Positions 2,341-31,191 of a stretch of 32,000 nucleotides of DNA are shown piece by piece. A program made the position numbers and the translations under genes. Source of the DNA: Chlamydiota bacterium (lineage in GTDB: Bacteria > Auribacterota > JACPWU01); contig JACPWU010000035.1 of NCBI GenBank assembly GCA_016196885.1, forward strand, positions 1 to 32,000, written 5' to 3'. The notes beneath the pieces are model-generated. The model saw only the letters and a list, made by a program, of their open reading frames with translations. It did not search any database and was not told the origin of the DNA. How positions within the stretch are numbered: position 1 is the first letter of the stretch; each line of letters begins with the position of its first letter.

Positions 2341-2423
2341 AAAAATAGTTTTTAGTTCTTAGTTTTGAGTTTTGAGTTTTGAGTTTTGAGTTTTTAGAAC
2401 TTATAACTTAAAACTATTTTTAG
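2341..2423. terminator. Long imperfect hairpin between convergent genes; loop is (GTTTTGA)x4
   Basis: AAAAATAGTTTTTAGTTCTTAGTT (2341-2364) pairs imperfectly with AGAACTTATAACTTAAAACTATTTTT (2395-2420). Tandem heptamer at 2362-2396. Lies between the stops of 1506..2339 (+) and 2420..3667 (-). A/T runs on both sides are compatible with a bidirectional terminator. Confidence 0.45.
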
Positions 2424-3667
2424 TACCACCCATGATGATCTTCCTGCGTCCCGGGGGTGGGTAAGGATTCTACCCCGGGCCACTCGAGATTTTTGGGAAA
2501 TTGAACGGCCTTCGTCCCTCCCCCTAAGGCATCCGGCCTGCTAATTCTAAAGCTATTTTCAATTTGGAAAAGCAAGGTTTTCAGTTCATCCCATCTTTCA
2601 ATCGAGGCATATCTTAACGTCATCACCCCGGAAAAACTATTTCCCTGAGAGACCAGGGCCCCTCTTAAAATACCGTGCTTACGCCCAGTGGAAAGATGAT
2701 CGAATAAAACCTCTCGCTCGATCACCTTCCAACGCTGGCCCAAGCGGTCAATAAACTCGTCATATTCATGTTCAGATAAAATTTCGACATGGTTGACGGC
2801 CGCGGGATCTTGGTCAAAAAGTTTCAGAAATTCCTGCGGGGTGGGATTACCCGGAAGATAAATAAAAAAATTCACCAGAAAACTATTGAATTCGTCTTCC
2901 GAGGTCACCTCGATCGAGTAACGACTTTCCTTCACCCGCCAACCTTGAGGATATGAAACTTGAAAAACCTGCCCCTCGAATAAATGAAGGGAATCACTTT
3001 GAAAAGATTCGAAGCTGTCCCGAGAACTTTCCAAGGTCATTTCCAAAGACGGCCATTCATCCAAAGGCGCCCAAATCGCCTCGTAAAAACTGGAATACCC
3101 TCTTTGAACCGCACGCACCTTCCCTGTCACAGGAATTCCAAAAATGGAGCCGGACAACACGGCCTCTATCTCTTCAGGTCTTTCCTTCACCTCTTCCAAA
3201 GTCAAATTTGGAAATTGTTTTTTCAGAATTTCTTTTTGAATCTCAAATTGGGATTGAAGTAAATCACGCAACGTGCCAGAGGCCTTGCGAATGGGACAAA
3301 TCAAAACGCAGGCCGTGCGCATCGCCTCCCGATACACCCAAACGCGGCCCGGTTCAATGTCCAATTTCCAATTTTCGGGAACGCGAAGAGAAAATCCCAA
3401 ATAGGGCTGCCTAAAAATCCTCATGGGAAGGACGGAGGCCTTTAGAGGCATGGGTAGTGGAGGATGTTGAGGCAAAACCTCAGGCTGCGCAACCAGGACA
3501 GGCTTCGGGGATTCCTTCGCTTCATGACGTCGAGGCTCAAGAGAATGCTGAGGAGAAGAAAGGATCAAAATAACCATGCACAAAAAGAAAGACACCCCCA
3601 GCCCCGCTGCCATCCTTTGCCCTCTCGTCCAAGACCTCATTTGAGAAAAAGGAGATAAATGTCTCAT
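2420..3667 (-). CDS. N-terminally membrane-anchored protein, anchored-paralog family (paralog of 7804..9288); Pro-rich stalk plus two degenerate modules
   Basis: Start moved to ATG 3667 (M40 of the ORF-track protein). The longer form would overlap the well-supported divergent gene at 3738, and the paralog aligns from here (PFSQMRSWTRGQRMAAGLGVSFF vs FLSQVGAWSLRQKILVTVGFFTF). TM helix AAGLGVSFFLCMVILILSS. Blocks conserved with the paralog: YLGFSLRVPENW, FQVSYPQGW, IYLPGNPTPQEF, SFSGVMTLR, LGGGTK. Confidence 0.7.
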   Translation of the reverse strand: MRHLSPFSQMRSWTRGQRMAAGLGVSFFLCMVILILSSPQHSLEPRRHEAKESPKPVLVAQPEVLPQHPPLPMPLKASVLPMRIFRQPYLGFSLRVPENWKLDIEPGRVWVYREAMRTACVLICPIRKASGTLRDLLQSQFEIQKEILKKQFPNLTLEEVKERPEEIEAVLSGSIFGIPVTGKVRAVQRGYSSFYEAIWAPLDEWPSLEMTLESSRDSFESFQSDSLHLFEGQVFQVSYPQGWRVKESRYSIEVTSEDEFNSFLVNFFIYLPGNPTPQEFLKLFDQDPAAVNHVEILSEHEYDEFIDRLGQRWKVIEREVLFDHLSTGRKHGILRGALVSQGNSFSGVMTLRYASIERWDELKTLLFQIENSFRISRPDALGGGTKAVQFPKNLEWPGVESLPTPGTQEDHHGWY

Positions 3668-3671
3668 TTTT

Positions 3672-3700
3672 TTGCGAACCCTTGAAAAATGTTCTATAAT
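3672..3700 (+). promoter_or_regulatory. Sigma70-like promoter for the 3738 gene: TTGCGA-N17-TATAAT
   Basis: TTGCGA at 3672-3677, exactly 17 nt spacer, TATAAT at 3695-3700. About 30 nt of leader carries GGGAG (3726-3730) 7 nt before ATG 3738. Sits in the 70-nt divergent intergenic region. Confidence 0.5.
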
Positions 3701-3737
3701 GAATATATCACTTAAACCTAGAAAAGGGAGCCATCCG

Positions 3738-4856
3738 ATGAAAAAGTTTCCTCTCGTTTCTTTGACAATTTTGAACTTTTTCATCCTTCATGCGGCCTTT
3801 GCCCAATATCCAGGACCCTCGAATTTTAACGCCAGTCTTCCCTCGGGCCTCACTTATACCCATCCTCAAGGCATTTTCACCCTTCAATTTCCTCAAGGAT
3901 GGATTCAAACCAATACCACCGATTTAAGACAGGCGGCCTATTTTATTCTCATTCAAAATGGAACGGCTCTCGCAGAGGCGGCCATTTATGTAGAAACCCT
4001 CTCGCAAACGGTGACACCTCAAATGTACGCCATTGGAGTAGAAGAAAACACGCTGCGTCGCACACCGGGTTATCAAAAGGCCGCTGAAAATGTAGTGGCC
4101 ATCAACGGTCAAATGGCGGCCTATCGTGAATTTTCTTATTCAGCCAACCTTCAGGGGCAGACGAAAATGGTTTTGTCCGCACACTATTATTTTGTGGTGG
4201 GAAATTTGGCCTATCTGCTTCATTTCGCGACTTATCCAGAAATCGCTCCGCAAGTGAAAAATCAATTTCTTCAAATTGCGCAGAGTTTCAAAATCTCGGG
4301 TGGCTCAGCGATGAATACCCCCCTCTATCAACAAAACACCAGCATGAATCTTTATCCCAATACGACTGGGCCCGTCCAAAACAATGCCCCTGTCTATAAT
4401 CCTTATGCATCACAAACCAATCCGAACCCTTATGTCTCTGCGACCCCTATCAACTCAGGCAATCCTCAAGACGTGAACTCCCCAGAATTTATACAGCGAT
4501 GGATGCAAGAGCATCCCTATGAACCCCCTCCTGTGGATAACCGCATGACGCAGCAATTAGACGCCATGGCCAAACAATGGCAGGCCCAGCATCCGGCCCC
4601 GACCGTGCCAACTCAAAATGCCCTCAACACAAATCCTTACAATCCGCCCCTGCCACCGACCCAGCAAACGGGAAATGCGACGACTTTTACCATGAATCAA
4701 CAAACGCCTTTGTCCCAAACGCCCATGCCTCAGACTCAAAAGGAGGAGCCTCTTCCCGCGCCACAACCGCTCCCAGAGATCGCACCTGTAGCACAAACGG
4801 TCCACACGACTCCAGAGGCAACACCCACAGATTTAGAAGGAGAGAATCAGCAGTGA
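3738..4856 (+). CDS. Exported paralog P1: one Y-x-H-P-x-G-x-F...P-x-G-W module plus about 185-aa N/P/Q-rich tail
   Basis: Start moved to ATG 3738 (GGGAG SD; signal peptide MKKFPLVSLTILNFFILHAAFA). Module starts YTHPQGIFTLQFPQGWIQTNTT (nt 3855-). The body is clearly paralogous to P3 and P6: VEENTLRRTPGYQK vs AEQNSLRGLQNYQE vs VEENTLKSLPQYQK; HYYFVVGNLAYLLHF vs EFYFVFGNAAYTFHF. Tail nt 4299-4856 is low complexity. Confidence 0.8.
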   Translation: MKKFPLVSLTILNFFILHAAFAQYPGPSNFNASLPSGLTYTHPQGIFTLQFPQGWIQTNTTDLRQAAYFILIQNGTALAEAAIYVETLSQTVTPQMYAIGVEENTLRRTPGYQKAAENVVAINGQMAAYREFSYSANLQGQTKMVLSAHYYFVVGNLAYLLHFATYPEIAPQVKNQFLQIAQSFKISGGSAMNTPLYQQNTSMNLYPNTTGPVQNNAPVYNPYASQTNPNPYVSATPINSGNPQDVNSPEFIQRWMQEHPYEPPPVDNRMTQQLDAMAKQWQAQHPAPTVPTQNALNTNPYNPPLPPTQQTGNATTFTMNQQTPLSQTPMPQTQKEEPLPAPQPLPEIAPVAQTVHTTPEATPTDLEGENQQ

Positions 4857-4866
4857 AAAACAGTCC

Positions 4867-4953
4867 GCAGTCGCCCGATTTATCGGGCAGTCTATGCATT
4901 GTCCCATAAATAGGGCGACTACAAGGGATTTGCCCGATAAATCGGGCGACTAC
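4867..4953. repeat. REP triplet copy 3: GCAGTC-GCCCGATTTATCGGGC-AGTCTATGCATT-GTCCCATAAATAGGGC-GACTAC-AAGGGATTT-GCCCGATAAATCGGGC-GACTAC
   Basis: Same family as 354..398, with one extra B palindrome plus head. Lies between P1 and P2 inside a probable operon. The ORF-track start of the next gene (4894) falls inside it. Confidence 0.8.
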
Positions 4954-4989
4954 AAGTTATTGGTAAAGGACTCTACCTTGAAATCCAGC

Positions 4990-6414
4990 ATGCTCAAACT
5001 TTTCGGGGGGGCATTGCTGATCTTCCTCAGTCAGCCACCGATGCCCTTTGCCCAAAATCTTTTACCCACGCCCGGGTACGCCATCACCTATCAAGATCCT
5101 CAACAGAGATTCGTCATCAGCTTTCCTTCGGGATGGCAGCAAGCGAAACCGCCATCACCCGAGGCCCAAGCCTATTTTTCTTACACACAAAATGGCGCCG
5201 TCATCGCAGAGGCTATTGTTTATTCGTATCAACTCCCCCATCAAATGAATGTCTCTGATTTTCAGTCCGCGATCTTTCAAAAAACCATCCTTCCCCATAT
5301 CAACACCATGACACCTGACCCCGCCAGCAACAGCCTCAAAAATTTTGGCATGACGACAAGCCTTCTCTCTGAATATGATTACAATCCCAAAACTCCCATG
5401 AGAATGAGGCACTATTATTTTGTCCACGTCTACACCGCCACAGGGATTGTGATTCGCTTTGACACCTTCAAACAATATTGGCCGATGATGATCCCAAAAT
5501 TTGAAGAGGTCATGGCCACGTTTAAAATAGGAATTAGCAATATCACCCTGGAACAATTGGCCGAGCAAAATCTCGTGGCAGGAAGTGTGACCCCGCCCCT
5601 GCTTCAAAATCCGAAGGCCTACATGCCGGATTATCCTTGGGATGTTTCACCCCAGGCCACCCCCTATGACGAAGAGATGCTCATCAACATCCGTGTCCTC
5701 AAAAATTTGGTTCAAAACGATCCCACTTTAAAAAGCACCCTCCCCGAAATCGAAAAGCGCGAAAAAGAAGTCGAACAAAGAATTCAAAACAGCCTCGAGA
5801 AAAATAAAAGAAAGGAGCTTGAGGCACTCCATCAAAAACCAGGGGAGGGACCTCTCCCGAAAGACTCCGCCGTCTCCACCGTTTTGAATGTGAAGCCTCC
5901 CGCAAATTTAACAGGAGATATTTATGGCGAAATCCAAAAAGCCCCACCTCGTCCCACCCCCGAAGAAACCCAAATTGCTGTAGAAGCCGATCTCGTTCCT
6001 TGGCAAGATCCCTTGGAGCGCTTCTCCCTCATTTATCCGAAGGGATGGGCGAAAACCCAAAAAGGGGCGTGGTATCTTTCTTTTGATGGACCCGAAGGCA
6101 ATCAGATTTTGGTCTTGTCCTTCATGGACCCTTCTTTCTCTGCAGAATATTTAAAGCAATTGCTCAAAAATCAGCCTCCCCTTGCACAAAAGGAAGTCAC
6201 ACTCAAAAATGCCGAGAAAGCCCAAATGCTCACGTTTCAAACCCGGAATGAAGAGTCACCTGACGCCGAAGAAATGATCGTGACCTCCATTTCACCCGAA
6301 AAATCAAATTTACTCTTTTTAATTCGCTTTTCAAAAGAACGCTACGAAGGCAACAGGGGTATGGTAAAAAAAATCATTGAGGTATTGATTGCGGGAATTG
6401 AACTGAAAGGATAA
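4990..6414 (+). CDS. Exported paralog P2: two modules separated by a charged K/E-rich linker
   Basis: Start moved to ATG 4990. The residues before it translate the REP element, and a signal peptide MLKLFGGALLIFLSQPPMPFAQ follows it. Module 1 is YQDPQQRFVISFPSGWQQAKPP (nt 5089-). Module 2 is WQDPLERFSLIYPKGWAKTQKG. Linker is EKREKEVEQRIQNSLEKNKRKELEALHQ. Confidence 0.8.
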   Translation: MLKLFGGALLIFLSQPPMPFAQNLLPTPGYAITYQDPQQRFVISFPSGWQQAKPPSPEAQAYFSYTQNGAVIAEAIVYSYQLPHQMNVSDFQSAIFQKTILPHINTMTPDPASNSLKNFGMTTSLLSEYDYNPKTPMRMRHYYFVHVYTATGIVIRFDTFKQYWPMMIPKFEEVMATFKIGISNITLEQLAEQNLVAGSVTPPLLQNPKAYMPDYPWDVSPQATPYDEEMLINIRVLKNLVQNDPTLKSTLPEIEKREKEVEQRIQNSLEKNKRKELEALHQKPGEGPLPKDSAVSTVLNVKPPANLTGDIYGEIQKAPPRPTPEETQIAVEADLVPWQDPLERFSLIYPKGWAKTQKGAWYLSFDGPEGNQILVLSFMDPSFSAEYLKQLLKNQPPLAQKEVTLKNAEKAQMLTFQTRNEESPDAEEMIVTSISPEKSNLLFLIRFSKERYEGNRGMVKKIIEVLIAGIELKG

Positions 6415-7712: not shown

Positions 7713-7733
7713 CACCCTTGTAGACTTATATTT

Positions 7734-7786
7734 GTAGTCGCCCCATTTATGGGGCCGTCCATTTGCCCGATGAATCGGGCGACTAC
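7734..7786. repeat. REP doublet copy 4: GTAGTC-GCCCCATTTATGGGGC-CGTCCATTT-GCCCGATGAATCGGGC-GACTAC
   Basis: Same orientation as copy 1. Lies 18 nt downstream of the stop of the minus-strand gene 7804..9288. Confidence 0.85.
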
Positions 7787-7803
7787 AAATCAAGTGTATC
7801 TGT

Positions 7804-9288
7804 CTACTCCAAAATAATATCTGTCGGATCCTGTGGATTCACATAGCCTCCTCGCGTGGGATCATAATCTTGAGGCGTTACCCACACCGCTTGTCCCGTC
7901 TTCTCGGAATCCCGATAGCCCCCGCCCTGCATGTATTCTCCCCATTTTTCACCCACCAGATCATTGGACTGGGTTTTTGCCTCCCAGCTTTCCATCACGC
8001 TGGAGGTGTCGGCGGGATGATTGGCCGGTAAAACCATGCCTTTCACCCCGCCCCCCAAAAGCTCTGGATGCAGGACCTGAAAACTTTTTTCAATCGCTTC
8101 TAGAAGGGATGAGACCGATTCCCATCGCTCGAGGGGGGCCTGTCGAATAGACATCACGCCTGAGAAGCTCACCATTTGCCTTAAAATTCCAGAGGTCATC
8201 GCCGCCCTCAATCGGCGGCCCTGCCAGTCATATTCCATGATGCGCCCGCCCATTCTCCAAGTTTGCCCGATGGCGTCTGTCATGTCCGCATAAGATTTTT
8301 GATCGAGAATGACGCTATTTTGAAGTTTGTCACCCAGATTGCGAAGGGCAAAATCCATGAATTGAAAGGGATCGGGATTGCCCGGCAAATAAATGGAAAG
8401 CCCTATCGAAACCGCTGTCTCATCTTGTGGGTCTTTCACATCAATACCATTTAAGGTCTCACTCACCTGCCAACCGTCTGGATAATAAACCTGAAAGGCA
8501 TTCCCCTGATAAAGCTTCAGAGGCTCGCCTTGAAAAGTTTCAAAACTCTCTGCAATCACTTGAAGCATTTCTTCCAAACCTTCCCATTCTTTTTGACGCG
8601 CCCAATAGGCTCGATAAAGACCGCGCCTCCCCTCCAAAGAAACTTTTGCCTTTCCTTGAATGGGAATCCCCGCTAAGACGCCCGAAAAATCAGCTGTCGC
8701 AAGCGTCTCTCTTTCATCCACCGCTCCCAGACTTAAACTGTTTCCACTTTTTTGATAAATGGCCTGATCTATTTGGAAGCAACTTCTCAAAAATTCTGTC
8801 AGGGTTAAACCCTTTTTTAAAAAAACGGGATAAACCACCACCCCCGTCAAGGCCTGAGGTTCCCGCTTCACCAAAATCTTTCCCTGCATGGCATGGAGAT
8901 GCCACATTTCCGGAATCCGAATCGAAAATCCCAGAAAGGCATCACGATAAACTGTCATGGGAAGCGACACACTTGGTTTCCTGACGGCCGTCAGTGGAAT
9001 GGGAGTCACTCCCGTCACTCCTGAACCTTTCCCGATGGGGATTTGAGAACCATCGGGGAGTTCAAGAAATTGAGCAGAACCCCAAGAGGGCTCTGTCACT
9101 TTTGTTGTCACAGAAGAAGGACGAGACACCCCAGGTGTTTCTTGATCTATTTTTTGCCTGGCCTCATTTCTCTTCCATGAAAAAATGAAAGCAAGGCTGA
9201 CAAAAGTAAAAAATCCCACCGTCACCAAAATTTTTTGGCGCAGGGACCAAGCACCCACCTGAGACAGGAATGAAAAGCACTTTTTCAC
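7804..9288 (-). CDS. N-terminally membrane-anchored protein, anchored-paralog family (paralog of 2420..3667); last gene of the kinase operon
   Basis: GTG start at 9288 overlaps the TGA stop of the upstream kinase gene (GTGA at 9288-9285). TM helix ILVTVGFFTFVSLAFIFS. Conserved blocks FLGFSIRIPEMW, FQVYYPDGW, IYLPGNPDPFQF, SFSGVMSIR, LGGGVK. Extra C-terminal G/D/P-rich tail. Confidence 0.8.
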   Translation of the reverse strand: MKKCFSFLSQVGAWSLRQKILVTVGFFTFVSLAFIFSWKRNEARQKIDQETPGVSRPSSVTTKVTEPSWGSAQFLELPDGSQIPIGKGSGVTGVTPIPLTAVRKPSVSLPMTVYRDAFLGFSIRIPEMWHLHAMQGKILVKREPQALTGVVVYPVFLKKGLTLTEFLRSCFQIDQAIYQKSGNSLSLGAVDERETLATADFSGVLAGIPIQGKAKVSLEGRRGLYRAYWARQKEWEGLEEMLQVIAESFETFQGEPLKLYQGNAFQVYYPDGWQVSETLNGIDVKDPQDETAVSIGLSIYLPGNPDPFQFMDFALRNLGDKLQNSVILDQKSYADMTDAIGQTWRMGGRIMEYDWQGRRLRAAMTSGILRQMVSFSGVMSIRQAPLERWESVSSLLEAIEKSFQVLHPELLGGGVKGMVLPANHPADTSSVMESWEAKTQSNDLVGEKWGEYMQGGGYRDSEKTGQAVWVTPQDYDPTRGGYVNPQDPTDIILE

Positions 9289-10424
9289 AACGCCCTCTCC
9301 TTTATCAACGGAATCCAGAAGTGAACTTGTGTACCCTCTCCTAGAGTGCTGTGAAGCTCAATCTCTCCACCATGCCGGGCAATCATGCCTTTGGCAAAGG
9401 GGAGTCCCAGGCCAGCAAGTTTCTCGTTATCCTTTTCCACATTGATGATCGGAAAGAATAAATCCCTTCGGACCTCTTCAGAAATCCCATGTCCTTCATC
9501 TTTAATCGTGAAGCTTATTGCGGGCATGTTATTTTTATCCATGGGTTTGGCCTGAACCTCTACTGTTCTCCCTTTGTCACTTGCCTCTATTGCATTCAGG
9601 ACCAGCCTTCGTAAGGTTTCCTGTAGGGCCGTAGGACTTGCCAGCACTTTCGTCTTTCCTCCCTCTATTTCCTTCTTGAGAATAATTCCTTTTTCATGAA
9701 CTGCCTTTTGAAGCTCTTCATCCTCAAAGTCCACCAATTCACTGAGTGCAATCTCTCTAAAGTCTTTGAGGCTATCCCAATAGATGGTCCTTAAGTTGTG
9801 GGTGATTTCTCGAATCCGTCTGACACATTGAAGAGCCGTATTGCCAAACTCGATCTCGGATTCGTCTTTATTAAAGCGCCGAGCTGCCAGTTGTACAAAT
9901 GTATATACACTCTGAATTGCATTGTTGATGTGGTGAGCAACCCAGGTGGTATAATTTTCCATGGCATGGGAAGTTTTTTCCTGAATCAACCGTGTGACTT
10001 CTTCCAATTGGGTGTTTTTTGCCTTTTCTTCAATATATTTTTGCAGGCTTGCTCCTAAGACTGCTTCTATTTCTTCTCTTTGATAGGGCTTATGAATGTA
10101 TTTGAAAATTTCTGCTTGATTAATGCTGGAGCCCAGGACTTCTATGTCTGAGTATCCAGTGAATAAGACTCGGATCACCTGAGGAAAAAACTGTTTGATT
10201 TGAGCGAGAAGTTCTATTCCCGTCATTGCGGACATGCGTTGGTCTGCGATAACAACTGCAATTTCGCTTCCCCGAGGGGTTCGTAAGATTTCCAGAGCTT
10301 CTTTGCCTGTCTGTGAAACCAGAATATTGAAGGAATCTCCAAACTGGAGTTTAAAAGTTTTTAGAACTTTTTGCTCATCATCAACAACAAGAATTGAATA
10401 ATTCTTCTGAGAAACTGCTGTCAT
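9285..10424 (-). CDS. Receiver-histidine kinase fusion (REC + HisKA-like + HATPase_c)
   Basis: REC motifs: ILVVDDE, VVIADQRMSAMTG (Asp61), LFTGYSD, HKP. H-box WVAHHINNAIQSV. ATP-lid motifs NAIEAS, DEGHGI, GLGLPF. AGAGGAG SD in the 23-nt gap after the upstream kinase gene. Confidence 0.9.
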   Translation of the reverse strand: MTAVSQKNYSILVVDDEQKVLKTFKLQFGDSFNILVSQTGKEALEILRTPRGSEIAVVIADQRMSAMTGIELLAQIKQFFPQVIRVLFTGYSDIEVLGSSINQAEIFKYIHKPYQREEIEAVLGASLQKYIEEKAKNTQLEEVTRLIQEKTSHAMENYTTWVAHHINNAIQSVYTFVQLAARRFNKDESEIEFGNTALQCVRRIREITHNLRTIYWDSLKDFREIALSELVDFEDEELQKAVHEKGIILKKEIEGGKTKVLASPTALQETLRRLVLNAIEASDKGRTVEVQAKPMDKNNMPAISFTIKDEGHGISEEVRRDLFFPIINVEKDNEKLAGLGLPFAKGMIARHGGEIELHSTLGEGTQVHFWIPLIKERAL

Positions 10425-10447
10425 ATCAACTCCTCTTGAAAATTCAT

Positions 10448-13405
10448 TTAAGAAGAGCGCTTACGATCCACAGGTAATTTTACAATAAACTCCGTTCCCT
10501 CACCCACCTTGCTTTTTACCTGAATTTCTCCGCCATGAGCTTGAATCGTGGCATGGCTTACACTTAAACCTAATCCCGTTCCCGATCCTACGGGTTTGGT
10601 CGTGAAAAAGAGATCGAAGATTTTATCCAAATCTTCCTTTGAGATACCGACTCCATCATCTCGAACCGAGGCAAAAATGAAGTTGCTTTCCTGCCAGGTT
10701 TTAATCCAGATATTTCCATTTCCTAAAATTGCATCTGATGCATTCTTGATGAGATTGATAAACACCTCTTCCAATCGAATAGAATCTCCTTGGATAGGAA
10801 TCACTGTACCATAAGTTTCGTGAAACTGTATTCGAGCCGCATTTCCAGCTTTTAAAATTCGAACACCCCTTTGCAAGATCTGATTTAAATCTACCGTCTC
10901 TATGTTCATCTGTGTAGCTCCATGATGGGAAGCCACCAGAAGATCCTGTACAATCACTCTCACTGCATCCAATTCTTCTTCCATGATTTCAAGAACCTCT
11001 TTGACGTCTGGCACGATCTCTTCAAAAGATGCATTTCCAGTTTTGACTCTTTCTATTCTATTTCTTAAGATGTCAACTCCTTGAATGGGCGAGTGGATTT
11101 TATTATTAAAGTGATGAGCAATACCTGCCACCATCACACCAATAGAAGCCAATTTCCCTGATTGAAAAAATTGTATCTCCAATTTCCTTCTTTCAATCAA
11201 CCCTTTTACTCGTGTCAAAATCTCTCGATTATTGAATGGCTTAGAGAGATACTCATCTGCCCCTTCTTCATAGCCTTTTATTTTGGATTCTATATCTGCT
11301 TTGGAGGTGAGCAGGATCACTGGGGTGAGTTTGAGTTCTTCGTCTGTTTTAATCGCATGCGCCAGTTCGTACCCATTCATTTTGGGCATCATGATGTCAG
11401 ATATGATAAGCGCCGGTCTTTGGGCTTTTACCTTTTGCAAGCCCTCTTCTCCATCCTTGGCAAAGTCAAGATTGTAGTAGTCTTTTAAGACGTAGCCCAA
11501 TATCTGGATGATTTGCGAATTGTCTTCGACAATGAGGATTTTGTCGCGGCCAAAGACTTCGCCTCGCAAGTGGCTGAGGTCCACTTCGTCAAAGTTTTTG
11601 AGGCCAAGATTTATTTTGATGTTTTCATCTTCGGTGAGATTCGTTGTGTCGAGTTTTGTTTTGTCTATGTGACGGTCTCCTAAGGGGAGTTCTACCGTGA
11701 AGATGCTCCCTTTGCCTACTTCGCTTTGGACACTCACTTTCCCAGAAAGTTTTTCCACAAATTCTTTTACGGTTGCAAGTCCAAGCCCTGTCCCTTGTAC
11801 TTCTCTTAAGGGGTTGTTGCTCGCTTGTGTGAAGGGGTCGAAGAGGGTGGCCAGATCCTCTTTGGGGATCCCTCGACCTGTGTCTCGTACTTGAATTTCG
11901 CACGTGCCTGCGTTTCCCCTCCCTTGATGGGAGGGGTTAGGGGAGGGTGACGCTCCCACCACAACCTCCACTTCACCATCTTTCGTAAATTTCAACGCAT
12001 TTCCAATGAGATTGTTTAACACTTTTTTCAATTTGGCTCGGTCGGTGTAAATATTTATTGGCTTTTCAAGCTTGTTCGTAAATTTAAGCCTGTTATGAGA
12101 AGATTTTGCAGCGCTTTCAAAGGCTTTGACTGTCCGATCCACAAAGCTCGCGATCTCAAGCTCGCTCCATGTGATTTCAAGAAGCCCCTTTTGAGACTTT
12201 GTGAGCATTAAAAGGTCATTCACATTCTCTAGCATGTCATCCAGAAAGGCACGGCTATCACCCAGAAGTTTTTCTTGCTGGACACTGTCTTTTAGGCCCC
12301 CTTCCATTATCATTTGAATGGTACTCGATAAGGCGACTAATGGGGTTCTAAATTCATGCGTGATGTTAGAGAAGAAGCGGGATTTGGCTTGGTCTAGATC
12401 TTTCAATTTCTCATTTGCCGTTTGAAGTTCTCGGGTTCTTTCTTGTACAAGTTCTTCCAAATGGTCTCGATGTTTCTGAAGTTCGGCATGCGTTTTTTCT
12501 AGTTCCTCATTGGCCGCTTGTAGTTCGTCGTATTTTTTGGTGATGGCTGTCACCGATTTTTCAAGGGCTTCGTTCTGCTCTTCTGTCATGAGCGTGTTTT
12601 CCTTGATGATTTTCCGATAGTCCAAAAGACGGCCCACCGTATAAGCCACAAGCATGAGGAGAAGTCCTGTTATCCCGTTAAGTGTGCTCTTGGGTAAGAT
12701 GATGAGACTAACCATGACAAGTGGAAGCGATATCGCCAGTCCCATCACCCCCAAGATTCTCCTCGGCCGATTGAGCCAGGTGTAGATATCCACGCAATAA
12801 GGGGCTCCCTGTGCTTGGCATTGTAGCTCCTGGACTTTCGCCATGGGCATGTCGAATAGGTTTGGGATGGAGGCCATTTGGCCGTGGCGATTTTCGCAAG
12901 CATATCGGTCGGTCTCGATTCCTTCTTTCCATGTTATTTTGATGACGGCTTCGTTTCTCTTTAATTCAAGAAGTTCCCACAAGGCCGCTTTGTTGAAGTT
13001 GGGGACCATTTCGACCACTTTCTTGATGGTAAATTTGACGGTGCCAAAGAACCGAAAGATGGTGTAGGTGCTTCCCCACGCTTCTTTCGTTGCGGCAATG
13101 GTCCCTGCTTCAAAGGGGGCTTTGGGGTCTTGGGTTGTGTCCGCGACGGCTTTGAGTAAGTGACGGTAATAGCTCCACGAGACCCAGTTGTTTTCATCTT
13201 GGAGATAATTGAGGTCCTGTCCTGTGTCTTGAATAAGTTGCGCTAACAACTTTTCCCCATATCTTTTTTTAACGTACAAAAGGGTGCTTTTTAAGACTTT
13301 GCAGTTGAGTTCTGCTCTTTCAAGTTTTTTTGTTTCTTTTCTGATTGTTTCCATTTTAGGGTCTTGTTTAGTTTTTCCGCTCCTTTTCAGCGATGATTTC
13401 TGCAC
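10448..13405 (-). CDS. Hybrid sensor kinase with two transmitter cores: N-terminal sensor, 2 TM, coiled coil, HisKA/HATPase_c, REC, second HisKA-like/HATPase_c
   Basis: First core: FFSNITHEFRTPL (His350), GNALKFT, DTGRGI, GTGLGL. REC: ILIVEDN, IISDIMMPKMNG (Asp670), LLTSK, LSKP. Second core: GIAHHFNNKI (His763/764), NLIKNASDA, DDGVGI, GTGLGLS. TM helices about aa 217-237 and 244-262. The start is uncertain: GTG 13405 overlaps the upstream gene by 38 nt, while ATG 13354 lies 13 nt after its stop. Confidence 0.9.
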   Translation of the reverse strand: MQKSSLKRSGKTKQDPKMETIRKETKKLERAELNCKVLKSTLLYVKKRYGEKLLAQLIQDTGQDLNYLQDENNWVSWSYYRHLLKAVADTTQDPKAPFEAGTIAATKEAWGSTYTIFRFFGTVKFTIKKVVEMVPNFNKAALWELLELKRNEAVIKITWKEGIETDRYACENRHGQMASIPNLFDMPMAKVQELQCQAQGAPYCVDIYTWLNRPRRILGVMGLAISLPLVMVSLIILPKSTLNGITGLLLMLVAYTVGRLLDYRKIIKENTLMTEEQNEALEKSVTAITKKYDELQAANEELEKTHAELQKHRDHLEELVQERTRELQTANEKLKDLDQAKSRFFSNITHEFRTPLVALSSTIQMIMEGGLKDSVQQEKLLGDSRAFLDDMLENVNDLLMLTKSQKGLLEITWSELEIASFVDRTVKAFESAAKSSHNRLKFTNKLEKPINIYTDRAKLKKVLNNLIGNALKFTKDGEVEVVVGASPSPNPSHQGRGNAGTCEIQVRDTGRGIPKEDLATLFDPFTQASNNPLREVQGTGLGLATVKEFVEKLSGKVSVQSEVGKGSIFTVELPLGDRHIDKTKLDTTNLTEDENIKINLGLKNFDEVDLSHLRGEVFGRDKILIVEDNSQIIQILGYVLKDYYNLDFAKDGEEGLQKVKAQRPALIISDIMMPKMNGYELAHAIKTDEELKLTPVILLTSKADIESKIKGYEEGADEYLSKPFNNREILTRVKGLIERRKLEIQFFQSGKLASIGVMVAGIAHHFNNKIHSPIQGVDILRNRIERVKTGNASFEEIVPDVKEVLEIMEEELDAVRVIVQDLLVASHHGATQMNIETVDLNQILQRGVRILKAGNAARIQFHETYGTVIPIQGDSIRLEEVFINLIKNASDAILGNGNIWIKTWQESNFIFASVRDDGVGISKEDLDKIFDLFFTTKPVGSGTGLGLSVSHATIQAHGGEIQVKSKVGEGTEFIVKLPVDRKRSS

Positions 13406-14783
13406 AATTTTTTAGAAGGCTCTCATCAATGTATCCGACTGAGTTTCTGAAATAGGCAAGTCTAAAGTCTAGACTTCTGGCCGCCTGATAGATTTCTTCT
13501 GCTTGATGCGCTTGAACCTTTCCGATGCTGCAGGTGTTGGACCGACCTATGGCGGTTAAGACCATGGTCTCAGCCAGGCACCCTAAAGCTTCGTTTCGAT
13601 TCAGATCAAAGTCAAAGTGACAGTCCACACCCGGCGTTTCTACAATCGCGGATTCGATCACAATGATATCGTTTCTTTTCTTTGGAACTTCGTCAGAGAC
13701 ATTCTTGGGCTGGGCACAGTCTATGACGATTGCCCCTGGCTTAAAATGTTCAGCGTGCACAATAGCCCCAGGAGCGTTGGTGACGACGATTACAATGTCT
13801 GAGCCCGCTATTCCAGAAAGGTTTCCTGAAGTTTCAATTTCGCAAGGAGCATCTTGGATAGAATCGATCAGCTCTTTCAATGCCTTTTGATTGATGTCTA
13901 TTAGTTTGAGTTTTTTGACTTTTCTCGCCAGGACTTGGACACAGCCTGTTCCTACTGAGCCCGCAGCCCCAATGACAGCAAGGGTCGAGTTTTCCAGTTT
14001 TAATCCAATCAAGGCAGCTGCCTTGACCACATTTTGTACGGCTACGGCGGCCGATAAGGGATTGCCCGTCGTTACCCCAATCTGAACTTTATCAACCACA
14101 TCTTTTCCATCATGGGTGACAATAGAGGTAAAGGCCCCCAGCCCTACAGTTCTGACCCCTATTCTTTGCGCAAGTTTTACCGTTTCTAAGACACGGTGAC
14201 TGGCCATTTTTCTGTCTTTGAGCATTTGAATCGTCCACAGAGGTGAGCCGATGAACCAGCCGTTTACGGCTTTTCCCGTTTTGTCTTTTAAGCCTGTGAT
14301 CTTCGACGCGATAAACGGTTTTTGATGATAAAACCATTTTTGTACCCATGTCTCTTTCATCCATTTGGCAAAGGGAAACATTCGATATACGTCCCGATGA
14401 TCTCTCGGATGCCCAATAAAAGCAAAGGCGCCTTTACCAACCAAAAACCGTCCGATTTTTTCTGGAAGAAGAGGGATGAGACTGTCGCGAAGTGCAGTTA
14501 GAATGCTTAGCATGCCTTGATGAAGTCTGGATCTTTCAGGTTGGAAAGAGGGGCCTCTTGATCTGCGCGCTTCACGACGACGATCCGCTTTTTTCCTTCT
14601 GTCATGTTGAGTAGATGAGCTCCATACACGGCGATTTTTTTCTCTTCGATCTTGTTTTGATGCTCTGCGATAGATCGGGAATTCGTCCGGTATAGTTACC
14701 GACTGGATTGGTGCTTGATCAAGAAGAGAGCAAGCGCTTGTTGATGTTTTAGGTAAGTTATTTATGACAAAAGAAAGTTCCAC
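13368..14783 (-). CDS. COG5322-type NAD(P)-dependent oxidoreductase resembling cyanobacterial acyl-ACP reductase (AAR), with possible Arg-rich N-terminal extension
   Basis: FAFIGHPRD, GLGAFTSIV, VTTGNPLSA, Rossmann motif LAVIGAAGSVGTGC, IVIDCAQPKN and GCLAETMVLT match, from memory, the AAR motifs LIGHLTS, LGGFTSI, TTGN, VVGATGDIGS, DGGYPKN and CFAEAML (catalytic Cys position conserved). The GTG start at 14783 is uncertain; ATG 14513 would remove the Arg-rich segment. Confidence 0.75.
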   Translation of the reverse strand: MELSFVINNLPKTSTSACSLLDQAPIQSVTIPDEFPIYRRASKQDRREKNRRVWSSSTQHDRRKKADRRREARRSRGPSFQPERSRLHQGMLSILTALRDSLIPLLPEKIGRFLVGKGAFAFIGHPRDHRDVYRMFPFAKWMKETWVQKWFYHQKPFIASKITGLKDKTGKAVNGWFIGSPLWTIQMLKDRKMASHRVLETVKLAQRIGVRTVGLGAFTSIVTHDGKDVVDKVQIGVTTGNPLSAAVAVQNVVKAAALIGLKLENSTLAVIGAAGSVGTGCVQVLARKVKKLKLIDINQKALKELIDSIQDAPCEIETSGNLSGIAGSDIVIVVTNAPGAIVHAEHFKPGAIVIDCAQPKNVSDEVPKKRNDIIVIESAIVETPGVDCHFDFDLNRNEALGCLAETMVLTAIGRSNTCSIGKVQAHQAEEIYQAARSLDFRLAYFRNSVGYIDESLLKNCAEIIAEKERKN

Positions 14784-14873
14784 GGCTGAAGCCCCCCCGG
14801 TGCCCCCTCAGTCCGTTTACGCCAAATATATCAACGCTCGTTTACCAGGACCATTATATGATAAAATAGGATT

Positions 14874-15080
14874 ATGAGAAACCTGAAAAAATTAAAGTCT
14901 GATACAATGGAAGACACGCTTGCCCTTTCTCCCCAAGAAAGGGTTCGGCTGGCAGAATCCCTTTATCAGGAAATAGTACACATTCAAAAGAAACGCTTTA
15001 AACCCTTCGTTAAATCCTTCTCGAGTTTTGAAGAATATGAAAAATGGAAGGCCCGACAAAAGGATCCTTGGCTATGGTGA
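14874..15080 (+). CDS. Small protein (68 aa) coupled to the downstream nucleotidyltransferase; putative antitoxin-like partner
   Basis: Its stop overlaps the downstream start in ATGGTGA (15074-15080). Helical, charged sequence. Weak resemblance to the small ORF of the second module (ERxRLxE; SF..EEY/DEF). No family recognised. Confidence 0.5.
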   Translation: MRNLKKLKSDTMEDTLALSPQERVRLAESLYQEIVHIQKKRFKPFVKSFSSFEEYEKWKARQKDPWLW

Positions 15081-15535
15081 AGTCTAGTTTGGCACGGGTA
15101 TGTGCCCTTTTAAATCGTTATCGAGTTCGATACTTGGTGATCGGAGCCCAGGCAGGGATTCTCTATGGCCTTGTGAGAAGCACGCATGATATTGATATTT
15201 TCCTTTTGAAGACAGCCGCCAATATTCAGAAAGCCCTCACAGCCCTTTCCTATTTGCCTCTGCAAATTGCAAAGGAATTAGACGCCGACGAAGTCTTAAA
15301 AAAACCGATTACCATTGTCGGAGACCAGCCTCGTGTGGACCTTTTAACCGCCCTCAGACAAGTTCAGTTTCACGATGCATGGAAGAAGAAAAAAGTGGTG
15401 AAGATTGACGGCATCCAAATCCCTCACTTGTCTTTAGAGGATCTCATCATTAGCAAAGACACAGACCGCCTTCAAGACCAGGCGGACTATGAAAAATTGA
15501 TACGACTTAGAGAATCCTTTAAAAATGTGATATAA
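15074..15535 (+). CDS. Minimal nucleotidyltransferase-fold protein (Pol-beta superfamily, mini AbiEii-like), module 1
   Basis: Start moved to ATG 15074 (7-nt overlap with the upstream stop). IGAQAGILYGLVRSTHDIDIF fits hG[GS]-x(9-13)-Dh[DE]h. C-terminal IPHLSLEDLIISKDTDRLQDQADYEKL resembles the E-D-L-I-x-x-K...R-x-K-D-x-x-D tail of AbiEii-type NTases. Paralog at 30579..31049. Confidence 0.7.
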   Translation: MVKSSLARVCALLNRYRVRYLVIGAQAGILYGLVRSTHDIDIFLLKTAANIQKALTALSYLPLQIAKELDADEVLKKPITIVGDQPRVDLLTALRQVQFHDAWKKKKVVKIDGIQIPHLSLEDLIISKDTDRLQDQADYEKLIRLRESFKNVI

Positions 15536-26092: not shown

Positions 26093-26692
26093 TTATAAAG
26101 CCCTCCTGGCCTCTAAAGCCCTTGCCAAAGTCAATTCATCTGCGTAATCGAGGCCCATTCCCACGGGGAGACCATACGCAATGCGCGTCACAGAAATATT
26201 TTCTTCTTCTAGCAACTCCCCCAGATAAAGAGCCGTGGCCTCCCCCTCCACATCCGTTCCCGTAGCCAAAATGACCTCACGCACCTTGAGCTTGCGCACC
26301 CTTTCAAGCAAGCTCTCCACTTTTAAATTCTCAGGACCCACGCCATCCAAGGGGGAAAGCTTTCCCATCAACACATGATACAGGCCGTGGAAACTCACAG
26401 ATTTTTCAATCATCAACGCATCCTTGGCCTCCTCAATGACGCAAATCAATCCACGATCTCTTTTCTCGTCCTGACAAATCGAGCAAATCTCTTCCTCGGT
26501 AAAGAGATAACATTCTAAACAGGGACGGATTCTGGTTTTAGAGGTCACCAGCGTTTGAGCAAATTGTTGAGTTTTATTTAGGGGAGATTTTAATAAAAAA
26601 ATCGCCATCCTCTCGGCCGTCTTCGTCCCAATCCCGGGAAAGAGTTTAAAGGCTTCAACCATATCTTGAAAAGCGTCTAGTTTGTATGTCAT
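26093..26692 (-). CDS. recR: Recombination protein RecR
   Basis: Start moved to ATG 26692 (MTYKLDAFQDMVEAFKLFPGIGTKTAERMA, typical RecR HhH N-terminus). The 21 extra residues in the ORF track (GTG 26755) translate a tandem repeat. Cys4 zinc finger CLECYLFTEEEICSIC; Toprim DVEGEATA. Confidence 0.92.
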   Translation of the reverse strand: MTYKLDAFQDMVEAFKLFPGIGTKTAERMAIFLLKSPLNKTQQFAQTLVTSKTRIRPCLECYLFTEEEICSICQDEKRDRGLICVIEEAKDALMIEKSVSFHGLYHVLMGKLSPLDGVGPENLKVESLLERVRKLKVREVILATGTDVEGEATALYLGELLEEENISVTRIAYGLPVGMGLDYADELTLARALEARRAL

Positions 26693-26704
26693 ATCGTCGT
26701 TCGC

Positions 26705-26753
26705 CGTTCGTTGTTCGTCGTTCGTTGTTCGTCGTTCGTTGTTCGTCGTTCGC
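26705..26753. repeat. Tandem repeat (CGTTCGTTGTTCGT)x3.5 in the dnaX-recR intergenic region
   Basis: Three exact 14-mers at 26705-26746 plus a partial unit. The downstream segment AACGAAATACGAACAAC (26763-26779) is partly complementary (GTTGTTCGT/ACGAACAAC, TCGTT/AACGA). Confidence 0.8.
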
Positions 26754-26800
26754 ACTCGTTTTAACGAAATACGAACAACAGTATATGAGCGACTGCTTTT

Positions 26801-29617: not shown

Positions 29618-30622
29618 ATGATTCAGCTGAAGTCATTGACGCTCAAATCCAATATTATCCAGTCTCCCATGGCAGGTTGCACAGACCTGGCCTTTCGGCT
29701 TTTGGCCCGAGAAAAAGGAATGGAATTCGCATTTCTGGAAATGGTTTCGGCAGATGCCTTGATCCGAAAAAACGCCAAAACTTTTGATCTCATGAAAAGC
29801 GTTCCTGAAGATAGGCCCCTGGGAGCCCAATTGGTCGGTTGTGACCCGGACGTCATGGGGGAGGCGGCCGCCATGGTGGAAGAAATGGGTTTTGATTTAC
29901 TAGACATCAATTGTGGCTGCCCCGTTCCCAAAGTCACAGCCCCAGGAGGGGGTTCTGCCCTTTTACTGCAGCCTGAAAAAACGAAAAAAATTTTTGAAAA
30001 GGTCGTGCAAAACATCCAGCGCATCCCGGTCACCGCCAAAATGAGAAAAGGGTACTCCGATCCCTCTGGAGAAGAAGCCGTTCACATCGCCAAAATCGCC
30101 GAAGACAGCGGACTTTCGGCCATCACCGTGCATGGTCGCACGCGCGCCCAAGGTTATACAGGCTCAGCTGATTGGGAAGCCATTGGAAAAGTGAAAAACG
30201 CCGTTCGCATTCCCGTCTTTGGAAATGGCGACGTGATCTCCGGGGAAGATGCTCAAAAACTCATTCAAGTGAGCGGCTGTGACGGCATCATGATTGGAAG
30301 AGGGGGGCTCGGAAACCCATGGATTTACAAAGAAATCGAGGCCTTTTTAAATGAAACTGCAGTGCCTGCTGATCCCACGCTAGAGGAACAAAAACAAATG
30401 GCGCTCAGGCATTTGGACCTGGTCATTCACAATGAAGGCGAGAGAAGGGCCATTCTTCAATTCAGGAAAATCGGTGCTTGGTATTTTAAGGACTCACCCG
30501 GCATTGCCGATTTTAGAGGAACCATTCACCAGACTGAAACTGCTTCAGGTATGAGAGAAGCTATTGAGAATTTTGGAGTTAAGAAGAATTTTTTTTTGAT
30601 GGATCTGGAGGCAAAGTCTTAA
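29618..30622 (+). CDS. dusB: tRNA-dihydrouridine synthase
   Basis: Start moved to ATG 29618 (MIQLKSLTLKSNIIQSPMAGCTD matches the usual Dus N-terminus L-A-P-M-A-G-x-T-D). DINCGCP, HGRTR, NGD. TATACT at 29606-29611 lies just upstream. Confidence 0.88.
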   Translation: MIQLKSLTLKSNIIQSPMAGCTDLAFRLLAREKGMEFAFLEMVSADALIRKNAKTFDLMKSVPEDRPLGAQLVGCDPDVMGEAAAMVEEMGFDLLDINCGCPVPKVTAPGGGSALLLQPEKTKKIFEKVVQNIQRIPVTAKMRKGYSDPSGEEAVHIAKIAEDSGLSAITVHGRTRAQGYTGSADWEAIGKVKNAVRIPVFGNGDVISGEDAQKLIQVSGCDGIMIGRGGLGNPWIYKEIEAFLNETAVPADPTLEEQKQMALRHLDLVIHNEGERRAILQFRKIGAWYFKDSPGIADFRGTIHQTETASGMREAIENFGVKKNFFLMDLEAKS

Positions 30623-31049
30623 GTCTAAAGACATCGCTTCGATCCACTTCACGCAGACTCTGGGACTTCAATAAAACCAGCCCTTCCCGGTCAAGATAGG
30701 GAATATCGAATCCTTCCAAAATATATTTGCGAATGTATTTTGCTAAATCTTGATAAGAAAAACCTGACATCTTCACAAAAACATCAAGCGGAAAATCTTC
30801 GATGATACGAATGGCCCCCTCTTCCTCTTTAAAATCTTGGATAGACAATTCTTGGAATCCTGAGGGAGAAAAAGATTTCAGAAAGAGAAAAAATCTTTCA
30901 ACATTCTCGGATGCCCCATTTATCAAAATATCTACGTCTTCTGTGGTGCGAACAAGCCCATTGAAGGCGCAAGCAATGCCACCCACAGTGATAAATTGAA
31001 CATTCGCTTTAACGAGATCGACCAACAATTTTTCGAAGAAATTCATCAT
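30579..31049 (-). CDS. Minimal nucleotidyltransferase-fold protein, module 2 (paralog of 15074..15535)
   Basis: VGGIACAFNGLVRTTEDVDILI fits the Pol-beta NTase motif. IPYLDREGLVLLKSQSLREVDRSDVFRL parallels IPHLSLEDLIISKDTDRLQDQADYEKL. The start is probably M17/M18 (31049/31046) by alignment with the paralog. The 3-prime end overlaps the dusB 3-prime end by 44 nt (convergent). Confidence 0.65.
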   Translation of the reverse strand: MMNFFEKLLVDLVKANVQFITVGGIACAFNGLVRTTEDVDILINGASENVERFFLFLKSFSPSGFQELSIQDFKEEEGAIRIIEDFPLDVFVKMSGFSYQDLAKYIRKYILEGFDIPYLDREGLVLLKSQSLREVDRSDVFRLKTLPPDPSKKNSS

Positions 31050-31191
31050 GTTTAAACGATGAGGACGGCCCTTGTCGAATTCTACGTAGGAATTCATTTA
31101 ATTCCCACAAACGCTCCAAAGGTCTTTTTTGAACATTGCCTAAAACAACTTTTTTAATCACAAGTGACCCCCTACCCTTATCTTTAGCCAT
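31009..31191 (-). CDS. Small protein (60 aa) upstream of and overlapping NTase module 2; putative partner
   Basis: Same position and orientation as 14874..15080 relative to its NTase. Weak similarity only. Overlaps the NTase ORF. Confidence 0.4.
   Translation of the reverse strand: MAKDKGRGSLVIKKVVLGNVQKRPLERLWELNEFLRRIRQGPSSSFKHDEFLRKIVGRSR

Follow-up and report, generated by a model that had tools for sequence, protein, structure and literature searches.

Why should a gene for an AAR-like reductase stand at the head of an operon that also encodes two histidine kinases but no response regulator for them to address? The question is raised by a 32,000-nucleotide stretch of DNA from a Chlamydiota bacterium (GTDB phylum Auribacterota; contig JACPWU010000035.1 of assembly GCA_016196885.1, positions 1 to 32,000) – hereafter the window. 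Its sequence also corresponds, in reverse complement, to part of contig JACOUD010000019.1 of GCA_016178005.1, a metagenome-assembled genome labelled "Chlamydiae bacterium", a label shared by the protein-database entries of the reductase and the kinase. On its minus strand, a run of four co-oriented open reading frames (ORFs; 14783..7804) encodes a reductase, a dual-core kinase, a kinase headed by a receiver (REC) domain and a membrane-anchored protein, here called genes 1 to 4. A preliminary description of this DNA had proposed an envelope-facing sensing system, with the anchored protein and its secreted relatives as periplasmic kinase partners or ligand binders and the oxidoreductase as the regulated or lipid-related component.

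Our analyses point elsewhere. With a probability of about one half, we read the locus as an enzyme-plus-receptor signalling cassette that feeds a kinase relay of the type formed by LvrA and LvrB in pathogenic Leptospira. Two conserved two-gene units meet in the operon: an enzyme followed by a sensor, and a dual-core kinase followed by a Rec-controlled histidine kinase (Rec-HK). The reductase usually partners a seven-transmembrane (7TM) sensor and the V4R-type dual-core kinase a methyltransferase; only in the window and at one other locus (L034) does a V4R-type sensor stand with the reductase. This swapping of partners between enzymes and sensor classes of the hydrophobic-ligand type argues for a synthase/receptor or enzyme/sensor logic over chance adjacency. 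Tight translational coupling, together with the apparent suitability of both sensor types for hydrophobic ligands, fits a sensor that reads a molecule made or consumed by the enzyme.

The thioester reductase and its sensor neighbours

We compared the product of gene 1 with curated families and structures. NCBIfam models matched it below their cutoffs, both for the N-terminal half of PigE (7e-43) and for AcACP_reductase (TIGR04058; 7e-24, 84.8 bits against a cutoff of 449.7), and as judged by sequence the protein falls outside the curated AAR equivalog. Searches of the Protein Data Bank (PDB) returned PigE (4ppm, 7e-20) and AAR (6jzu, 2e-16). A Rossmann-type nucleotide-binding motif, GAAGSVG, begins at residue 272, and Cys402 (in LGCLAE), which is invariant in the family alignment, aligns with Cys296 of PigE in a HMMER alignment. 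PigE's N-terminal domain is a thioester reductase, and its Cys296 equals Cys294 of AAR, the acyl-enzyme nucleophile (PMC8341465). Because the catalytic cysteine is conserved and the protein is homologous to AAR and PigE, gene 1 most likely encodes an acyl-thioester-to-aldehyde reductase – in agreement with the AAR-like, lipid- or thioester-related oxidoreductase of the preliminary description.

The publicly annotated protein comprises 381 amino acids from ATG 14513; the reading frame offers just one other start, GTG 14783. We found that tblastn alignments of gene 1 with other genomes reach back to residues 32-73, upstream of M91, and that the 90 codons preceding ATG 14513 (window positions 14513-14783) encode a conserved Arg-rich linker. 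Since this upstream stretch aligns with homologs and GTG 14783 is the sole other start, the public start is probably placed too far downstream and the protein probably comprises 471 amino acids. Docking to acidic acyl carrier protein (ACP), membrane binding and nucleotide binding are ideas for the role of the linker.

The closest relatives of gene 1 (45-64% identity, ~580 amino acids) come mostly from Nitrospira. Many consist of an N-terminal PilZ domain, an Arg-rich linker and then the reductase, and the PilZ domain of the nearest has canonical RxxxR and DxSxxG motifs. Neither Pfam nor alignment to these homologs identified a PilZ domain in gene 1, which keeps the linker only; the c-di-GMP input suggested for many relatives is not present in the window reductase. 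We considered a degraded PilZ domain upstream of GTG 14783 and rejected it because a plus-strand gene starting at 14874 leaves no coding room.

To place the reductase in its genomic context, we used 33 species-level genome loci of the reductase subfamily. Every one of them has a sensor region on the same strand after the reductase, of the HisKA_7TM type in 32 and V4R-like in one (L034, labelled Pseudomonadota). In 31 of the 33 loci this region begins within 125 nucleotides of where the reductase match ends; stop and start codons often overlap, and at least 26 of the 32 7TM sensors are histidine kinases. The functional tie between oxidoreductase and sensor gene that had been suggested for the window is thus supported by an order of reductase and then sensor that is kept throughout the set.

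The composition of these clusters varies. In the closest reductase homolog (P0002, 64% identity), a PilZ-reductase gene overlaps that of a 7TM kinase. Another cluster (P0004) continues from PilZ-reductase and 7TM kinase to a REC protein and an OmpR-type regulator, and a third (P0003) adds a gene for a PilZ-fused HMG-CoA-reductase-like protein to the same order. Elsewhere the reductase gene overlaps one for a 7TM-GGDEF protein in place of a kinase (P0019), or is followed by a 7TM protein, a 7TM kinase, a REC-PAS-kinase, a solute-binding protein and a GAF-GGDEF protein (L003). Members are prominent in Nitrospira and are found as well in metagenome-assembled genomes labelled Elusimicrobiota, Omnitrophota and Chlamydiae. 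More distant reductases (36-40% identity; Phascolarctobacterium and other Negativicutes) have no sensor neighbour.

Several related loci contain further arrangements of note. One metagenome contig (L118) carries two PilZ-reductase fusions within a single operon, and a PilZ domain fused to an HMG-CoA-reductase-like protein (3440-5107) is flanked there by a 7TM kinase and by an AAR-like reductase that is itself fused to PilZ. On two others (L119:7115-11267 and L120:5935-10087), a gene for a PilZ-less AAR-like reductase overlaps one for a HisKA_7TM-GGDEF protein and adjoins phage-like RecT, YqaJ, YopX and HTH repressor genes; this cassette may travel on a prophage. In Nitrospira moscoviensis (L006:13430-14251), a Tll0287-like periplasmic sensor-domain protein with a heme-type CxxCH motif follows a PilZ-reductase and a 7TM-GAF kinase.

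The sensor domain and the kinase relay

The sensor in the window belongs to a different class. Within residues 1-200 of gene 2, the sole Pfam match was to V4R (PF02830; residues 152-188, E 0.004, 17.7 bits against a gathering threshold of 31); no PAS domain was matched by Pfam on gene 2. We modelled the domain with AlphaFold2 (AF2) from an alignment of 18 family members, obtaining a pLDDT of 92.4. Foldseek comparison of this model with the PDB ranked H-NOX first (TM-score ~0.65, E 3e-7), and PoxR, MopR and the N-terminal domain of VirS were found at E ~3e-4 (TM-scores of 0.43-0.50 for PoxR and MopR). The domain also contains a zinc signature, C153-x22-E176-x2-C179-x7-C187, with spacing identical to that of C149/E172/C175/C183 in XylR – a type of site established structurally in PoxR, MopR and DmpR (bioRxiv 10.1101/2021.01.17.427014). 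Of the 18 aligned family members, 13 have the cysteine triad.

Despite the fold, we rejected an H-NOX-type heme sensor. The 18 family members share no conserved histidine and lack the YxSxR motif, so heme binding by this domain is unlikely. By analogy with XylR, MopR and PoxR, the fold and zinc signature suggest a sensor built to bind a small hydrophobic molecule. A word-indexed homolog search with the sensor domain alone gave no matches; exhaustive searching with HMMER recovered the domain in 965 cluster representatives, nearly always at the N-terminus. Among nine multidomain members scanned against Pfam, eight are histidine kinases of varied architecture and one is an ABC transporter fusion. 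A tblastn search of PLSDB plasmids found no match to the domain.

A transmembrane (TM) hairpin follows the sensor. Basic residues flank both helices on the cytoplasmic side; the sensor domain and all kinase parts of gene 2 are therefore predicted to be cytoplasmic, with ~7 residues outside the membrane. We rejected periplasmic sensing by this kinase on the grounds of its 7-residue outer loop. The envelope-facing sensing of the preliminary description is accordingly not borne out, for gene 2 has no periplasmic domain and its H-NOX/V4R-fold sensor lies on the other side of the membrane.

Behind the hairpin, gene 2 consists of two kinase cores separated by a receiver (Table 1). Gene 3 comprises REC (D61), DHp (H164/165) and HATPase domains, with Pfam matches to Response_reg (1e-16), HATPase_c (3e-17) and, weakly, HisKA, and has no DNA-binding domain. 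(Residues H333, D653 and H747/748 refer to the 968-amino-acid form of gene 2, D61 and H164/165 to the 379-amino-acid gene 3.) Pfam and NCBIfam thus confirm the three transmitter cores, two receivers and missing output domain noted earlier, and tblastn with both REC domains found no further receiver in the window, which has no output domain elsewhere either. The NCBIfam LvrA model aligns residues 264-978 of gene 2 (in the numbering of a 985-amino-acid form) to positions 130-817 of its 819 (9e-83; 278.6 bits against a cutoff of 1200), and gene 3 matches the LvrB model at 2e-16 (60.2 bits against a cutoff of 500). LvrB was not among the PDB entries matched by the gene 3 sequence at E <= 1e-8, so we regard the Lvr resemblance as architectural.

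Seven proteins share the full architecture of gene 2 at 31-40% identity. We read the contigs of four full-length relatives (L083-L086) and found that a REC-kinase gene lies directly downstream in each, overlapping or 16 nucleotides away; a metagenome locus, L104, shows the same. All four encode mutually homologous S-adenosylmethionine (SAM) methyltransferases – directly upstream of the kinase with a gap of 3-4 nucleotides in L083-L085 (L084 being cut by the contig end), and separated from it by one gene in L086. The methyltransferase of one relative matches the model of CMAS (cyclopropane-fatty-acid synthase) among many methyltransferase models. All four loci also encode mutually homologous PilZ-domain proteins of 811-944 amino acids nearby.

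A metagenome scan with the sensor-domain alignment extended this pattern. It yielded 29 loci, of which 14 (L104 included) have the same methyltransferase family upstream at gaps of 0-18 nucleotides, bringing methyltransferase-to-V4R-kinase coupling to 18 loci overall. Other upstream genes among the 29 encode a large PilZ protein (one locus), a FemAB/GNAT-like acyltransferase, an FMN reductase and an ABC ATPase. By tblastn, neither the large PilZ protein nor the methyltransferase of the related loci is present in the window. The four genes grouped together in the preliminary description are not conserved as neighbours; our neighbourhood comparison shows that only the enzyme-sensor and kinase-REC-kinase pairs are kept.

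We also observed that the large proteins beside the methyltransferase-V4R-kinase cassettes form a family of 790-944 amino acids in which PilZ is the sole recognisable part (L083:12467-15007, L084:5500-7962, L085:12136-14571, L086:2348-5182 and L101:2845-5226). Taken together, PilZ domains on the enzymes, GGDEF outputs on the receptors and PilZ proteins close to the methyltransferase cassettes suggest that in many relatives c-di-GMP feeds back on the enzyme.

These results suggest how a cassette of enzyme, receptor and relay could operate. The reductase would act on the thioester of an acyl-ACP or acyl-CoA to yield a hydrophobic aldehyde or a compound derived from it, which the V4R-like pocket of gene 2 would bind. 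Binding would switch autophosphorylation of gene 2 at H333, and the phosphoryl group would move to D653, activating the second kinase core (H747/748). This core would phosphorylate D61 of gene 3 and release its catalytic domain, as in the LvrB mechanism, and gene 3 would in turn phosphorylate an orphan response regulator whose gene lies at another place in the genome. The Lvr-like phosphoryl flow is the firmer part of this scheme, firmer than the direction of the enzyme-sensor relationship.

Several observations weigh against this scheme. The adjacency of enzyme and sensor would be explained just as well if control ran the other way, from kinase to enzyme. Of the full-length kinase relatives, the five closest (P0122, P0124, P0125, P0131 and P0132) lack the zinc-site cysteine triad, and the matches to the LvrA, LvrB, AAR and V4R models all fall below their cutoffs, a likeness of architecture and fold and not orthology. 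The PilZ domain and the OmpR-type regulator of reductase relatives are both missing from the window, and co-transcription of the four genes is itself inferred. Finally, since pairing of the reductase with a V4R-type sensor is rare (only the window operon and L034) and the closest reductase homolog is paired with a 7TM kinase, the operon appears to be a recent mosaic, whose parts may not yet, or no longer, match.

A possible, if doubtful, alternative is homeostatic control in the manner of DesK/Des, in which the V4R domain and hairpin would sense lipid or membrane state or a metabolite pool, the reductase would be a lipid-remodelling output and not a synthase, and the relay would autoregulate the operon through a regulator encoded elsewhere. 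The enzyme does come first in the operon and is related to lipid or thioester chemistry, and the partner enzymes of relatives are generic SAM methyltransferases, including the one that matches CMAS. The sensors concerned are membrane-embedded (HisKA_7TM) or membrane-tethered; however, membrane thickness is not what a soluble, ligand-binding fold like that of XylR and MopR senses. PilZ domains on the reductase homologs and GGDEF-type receptors suggest an output that acts back on the enzyme, yet nothing about the OmpR-type regulator found in some relatives shows the enzyme gene to be its target. The genomic data fit homeostatic control and a signal synthase equally and do not discriminate between them.

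More broadly, and only tentatively, we propose that AAR-like reductases – often fused to a c-di-GMP-binding PilZ domain and nearly always in translational coupling with a sensor kinase or diguanylate cyclase of the 7TM or V4R type – may be synthases of unrecognised, widespread autoinducers derived from lipid aldehydes, with the neighbouring sensor as receptor. The window would then represent a variant whose receptor has been swapped for a V4R-LvrA-type kinase that normally partners a methyltransferase synthase.

Transcript anatomy, flanking genes and the anchored protein

We next consider the operon as a transcription unit. The TAA stop of gene 1 (13370-13368) is followed after 13 nucleotides by ATG 13354 of gene 2, and the alternative start of gene 2 at GTG 13405 would overlap gene 1. 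A 23-nucleotide spacer containing AGAGGAG separates gene 2 from ATG 10424 of gene 3, whose TGA stop overlaps GTG 9288 of gene 4 by four nucleotides (GTGA, 9288-9285), with GGAGAGGG upstream. A scan of the junctions found no site resembling an intrinsic terminator at any of those internal to the operon. Downstream of gene 4 lies a strong stem-loop, which has no T-run and is not a canonical intrinsic terminator; it likely marks the 3' end of the transcript or stabilises it. An Rfam scan detected no credible riboswitch or leader RNA in 7300-15700. Junctions and transcript-end features together make co-transcription of genes 1-4 well supported by anatomy, as inferred from the DNA sequence. The three junctions are as the preliminary description gave them, and they are consistent with its claim of a single transcript.

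Table 1. Features of the reductase-kinase operon and neighbouring elements, with positions in the window.
Feature	Position	Strand	Details
Gene 1, AAR/PigE-N-like thioester reductase	14783..13368	-	471 amino acids from GTG 14783
Arg-rich linker of gene 1 (PDEFPIYRR...DRR...RR...DRRREARRS)	14693..14514	-	Aligns with PilZ-reductase homologs P0002-P0006; no Pfam match
Gene 2, membrane-tethered dual-core hybrid kinase	13354..10448	-	968 amino acids from ATG 13354; 985 if from GTG 13405
Predicted cytoplasmic sensor domain of gene 2, residues ~12-198	13321..12761	-	H-NOX/V4R fold and XylR-type zinc signature
TM hairpin of gene 2, residues ~200-246	12757..12617	-	Hydropathy scan and direct reading; outer loop PKSTLNG, 7 residues
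Kinase core 1 of gene 2: DHp H333 (HEFRTP) and catalytic domain	12388..11681	-	Pfam HisKA 3e-12, HATPase_c
Internal receiver of gene 2, D653	11539..11204	-	Pfam Response_reg 1e-25
Kinase core 2 of gene 2: DHp AHHFNN box (H747/748) and second catalytic domain	11152..10457	-	Second HATPase_c; AtoS, ZraS and LvrA models reach residue 983
Gene 3, Rec-controlled histidine kinase, LvrB/PhcR-type	10424..9285	-	379 amino acids
Gene 4, N-terminally anchored, two PsbP/DcrB-like modules	9288..7804	-	Start overlaps gene 3 stop
Promoter-like site TTCTCA-16-TATAAT, sigma-70-like	14880..14853	-	~70 nucleotides upstream of GTG 14783; consensus match 10/12, a consensus match only and not functional evidence
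Strong stem-loop, copy of REP-like element	7788..7732	-	16 nucleotides past gene 4 stop; RNA fold -40.4 kcal/mol, z = -6.4
REP-like palindrome copies in the window	352-400, 514-574, 4913-4955, 7732-7788, 23057-23128		
ORF of 68 amino acids, faint antitoxin-like match	14874..15080	+	Between gene 1 and P6, divergent from operon
DUF6036/DUF2204 nucleotidyltransferase	15044..15535	+	Start overlapped by the 68-amino-acid ORF

Gene 4 belongs to a family that surrounds the operon. Six paralogous exported or anchored PsbP/DcrB-like proteins, gene 4 included, are encoded at 2420-9288 and 15567-16943; five of the six have PsbP/DcrB matches, all sub-threshold. Each module in these paralogs opens with a strand of the type Y-x-D-P-x-G-x-F-S-x-x-x-P-x-G-W, and several of the proteins have long Pro/Gln-rich low-complexity linkers. 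The operon is indeed flanked by exported module paralogs, as first described, with P3 (6419..7510) to the left and P6 (15567..16943) to the right; both have signal-peptide-like N-termini and weak PsbP/DcrB matches, and a plus-strand gene pair separates gene 1 from P6. This pair (14874..15535) looks like a toxin-antitoxin-type pair. A further ORF at 30579..31097, on the minus strand, seems to encode another such nucleotidyltransferase.

Such surroundings could indicate that a mobile enzyme-kinase cassette and the nucleotidyltransferase pair landed in a cluster of module genes, with genes 1 and 4 co-transcribed by accident and functionally unrelated to the kinases, an explanation that we consider unlikely. 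The operon does sit between paralogs of one family, with a repetitive extragenic palindrome (REP)-like element on one side and the toxin-antitoxin-like pair on the other, and the GC content falls to 0.40 at 10-11 kb of the window. The pairing of a reductase with a V4R sensor is rare, and relatives of each part occur with other partners. However, coupling of reductase to sensor in 33 of 33 loci and of enzyme to V4R kinase in 18 makes a functional tie of genes 1 and 2 the default expectation, and L034, under a different phylum label, independently shows a reductase followed by the same V4R-like domain.

Conservation of this kind does not extend to gene 4. Its product has one N-terminal TM helix (residues 18-38) and a weak Pfam match to PsbP (residues 260-284); an AF2 model from a two-sequence alignment was unusable (pLDDT 38). 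The closest paralog (2420..3784, 36% identity) is a stand-alone gene with no kinases nearby. A scan of JGI metagenomes returned no relatives of gene 4, and no homolog lies beside the related kinase pairs: in the five full-length loci (the four described above and L104), what follows the REC-kinase is some other gene or no gene at all. Most simply, gene 4 is a member of the local paralog cluster that was probably added in this lineage and is co-transcribed with the kinases. At most it may serve as an accessory whose TM helix touches the kinase hairpin, though nothing supports such a role. There are precedents for membrane proteins that regulate kinases by way of their TM segments, such as YycH/YycI with WalK, and the overlap of the gene 4 start with the gene 3 stop, the membrane anchors on both genes 2 and 4 and the five surrounding paralogs are what an envelope-facing system with the module proteins as periplasmic kinase partners or ligand binders would have in its favour. 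With the kinase almost wholly inside the membrane, a cytoplasmic sensor, a soluble gene 3 and module proteins that are not conserved beside kinases, we consider that original model improbable.

Additional observations concern the rest of the window. Copies of the REP-like palindrome, with arm TTGTAGTCGCCC, stand as inverted pairs at five places between genes, giving 10 arm matches where 1.4 would be expected. The N-terminus of the ORF at 4894..6414 (MHCPINRATTRDLPDKSGDYK; 4894-4960) overlaps the REP-like copies at 4913-4955 and looks like translated intergenic repeat, so that the real start is probably further downstream. The ORF at 26093..26755 has an odd N-terminus (MRTTNNERRTTNDEQRTANDD; 26690-26755) that may have a similar repeat origin; no REP arm matched there. 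By eye, we recognised CdaA-like and YbbR/CdaR-like genes upstream of GlmM (21209-22943), in the usual order of a c-di-AMP synthase operon.

Comparison with known systems

The wider pairing of enzyme and sensor, especially of PilZ-reductase and 7TM sensor in Nitrospira, is the most interesting lead and may matter more than the window itself. Reductase-7TM pairs in 32 of 33 loci, methyltransferase-V4R-kinase coupling in 18 and the recurrence of PilZ point to families of enzyme-receptor cassettes for hydrophobic signals, in organisms without known signalling of this kind, including the culturable Nitrospira moscoviensis. If the product of the reductase is the ligand of its sensor, these cassettes would represent new autoinducer chemistry; if not, a lipid-homeostasis circuit of new design.

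Pairs such as CqsA-CqsS, LqsA-LqsS and RpfF-RpfC encode the synthase of a hydrophobic, lipid-derived signal beside the membrane sensor kinase that serves as its receptor. The reductase-HisKA_7TM loci (32 of 33) show the same pattern of synthase beside sensor, although the enzyme families of the known pairs are different (PLP acyltransferase, crotonase) and the likeness is one of gene pattern only.

The enzyme and sensor of the window each resemble characterized proteins in a different setting. Gene 1 shares the Rossmann-type motif and catalytic cysteine of AAR and the PigE N-terminal domain, which reduce a thioester to an aldehyde; unlike these, it has no aldehyde-deformylating oxygenase or aminotransferase partner, carries an Arg-rich extension, has mostly PilZ-bearing homologs and always stands beside a sensor gene. 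The sensor domain of gene 2 has the overall fold of the A (V4R) domain of XylR, DmpR, MopR and PoxR, the Cys-Glu-Cys-Cys spacing of XylR and a weak Pfam V4R match over the same segment. That A domain sits on a sigma-54 AAA+ activator, whereas the gene 2 domain is joined to a histidine kinase through a TM hairpin. H-NOX has the same fold but, in contrast to gene 2, the heme ligands.

The order of genes 1 to 3 recalls the Phc system of Ralstonia. The phcBSRQ operon contains genes for a signal-synthesising methyltransferase, a sensor kinase, a Rec-HK and a lone receiver, and none for a DNA-binding output (PMC8578825); PhcR has been named as another Rec-HK (PMC13269768). The order of small-molecule synthase, sensor kinase and Rec-HK is the same in the window, as a likeness of form only. 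The Phc signal is a fatty-acid derivative, and relatives of the window kinase carry a SAM methyltransferase in the position of PhcB, again a likeness of form. In the window, by contrast, the enzyme is a putative thioester reductase and not a methyltransferase, the sensor kinase is dual-core, and no PhcQ-like single receiver follows gene 3, gene 4 having no REC domain.

The Lvr system is the nearest parallel to the kinases. LvrA (PAS-DHp-CA-REC-DHp-CA) and LvrB (REC-DHp-CA) are co-transcribed, neither has a DNA-binding domain, and phosphotransfer from LvrA to LvrB has been demonstrated (PMC5863495). Structures from 2026 show that receiver phosphorylation frees the catalytic domain of LvrB, and that the gene for its partner, the REC-anti-sigma protein LvrC, is unlinked (PMC13269768). 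The window likewise has adjacent, co-oriented genes for a sensor-DHp-CA-REC-DHp-CA protein and a REC-DHp-CA protein, both free of DNA-binding domains, and would share a regulator encoded outside the operon. The lack of an output regulator was correctly noted in the preliminary description, yet it is no anomaly: it is expected, because the Lvr and phcBSRQ operons have no DNA-binding output either and LvrC is encoded elsewhere. Unlike LvrA, which is soluble and has a PAS sensor, gene 2 combines a V4R/H-NOX-like sensor with a TM hairpin, and the window operon adds genes for an enzyme and an anchored protein. Rec-controlled kinases and HK-REC-HK hybrids have been understood mechanistically only recently, through the 2026 work on LvrB. 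The locus described here shows the same relay with a different input – a putative small-molecule sensor, cytoplasmic and XylR-like, in tight coupling with an enzyme.

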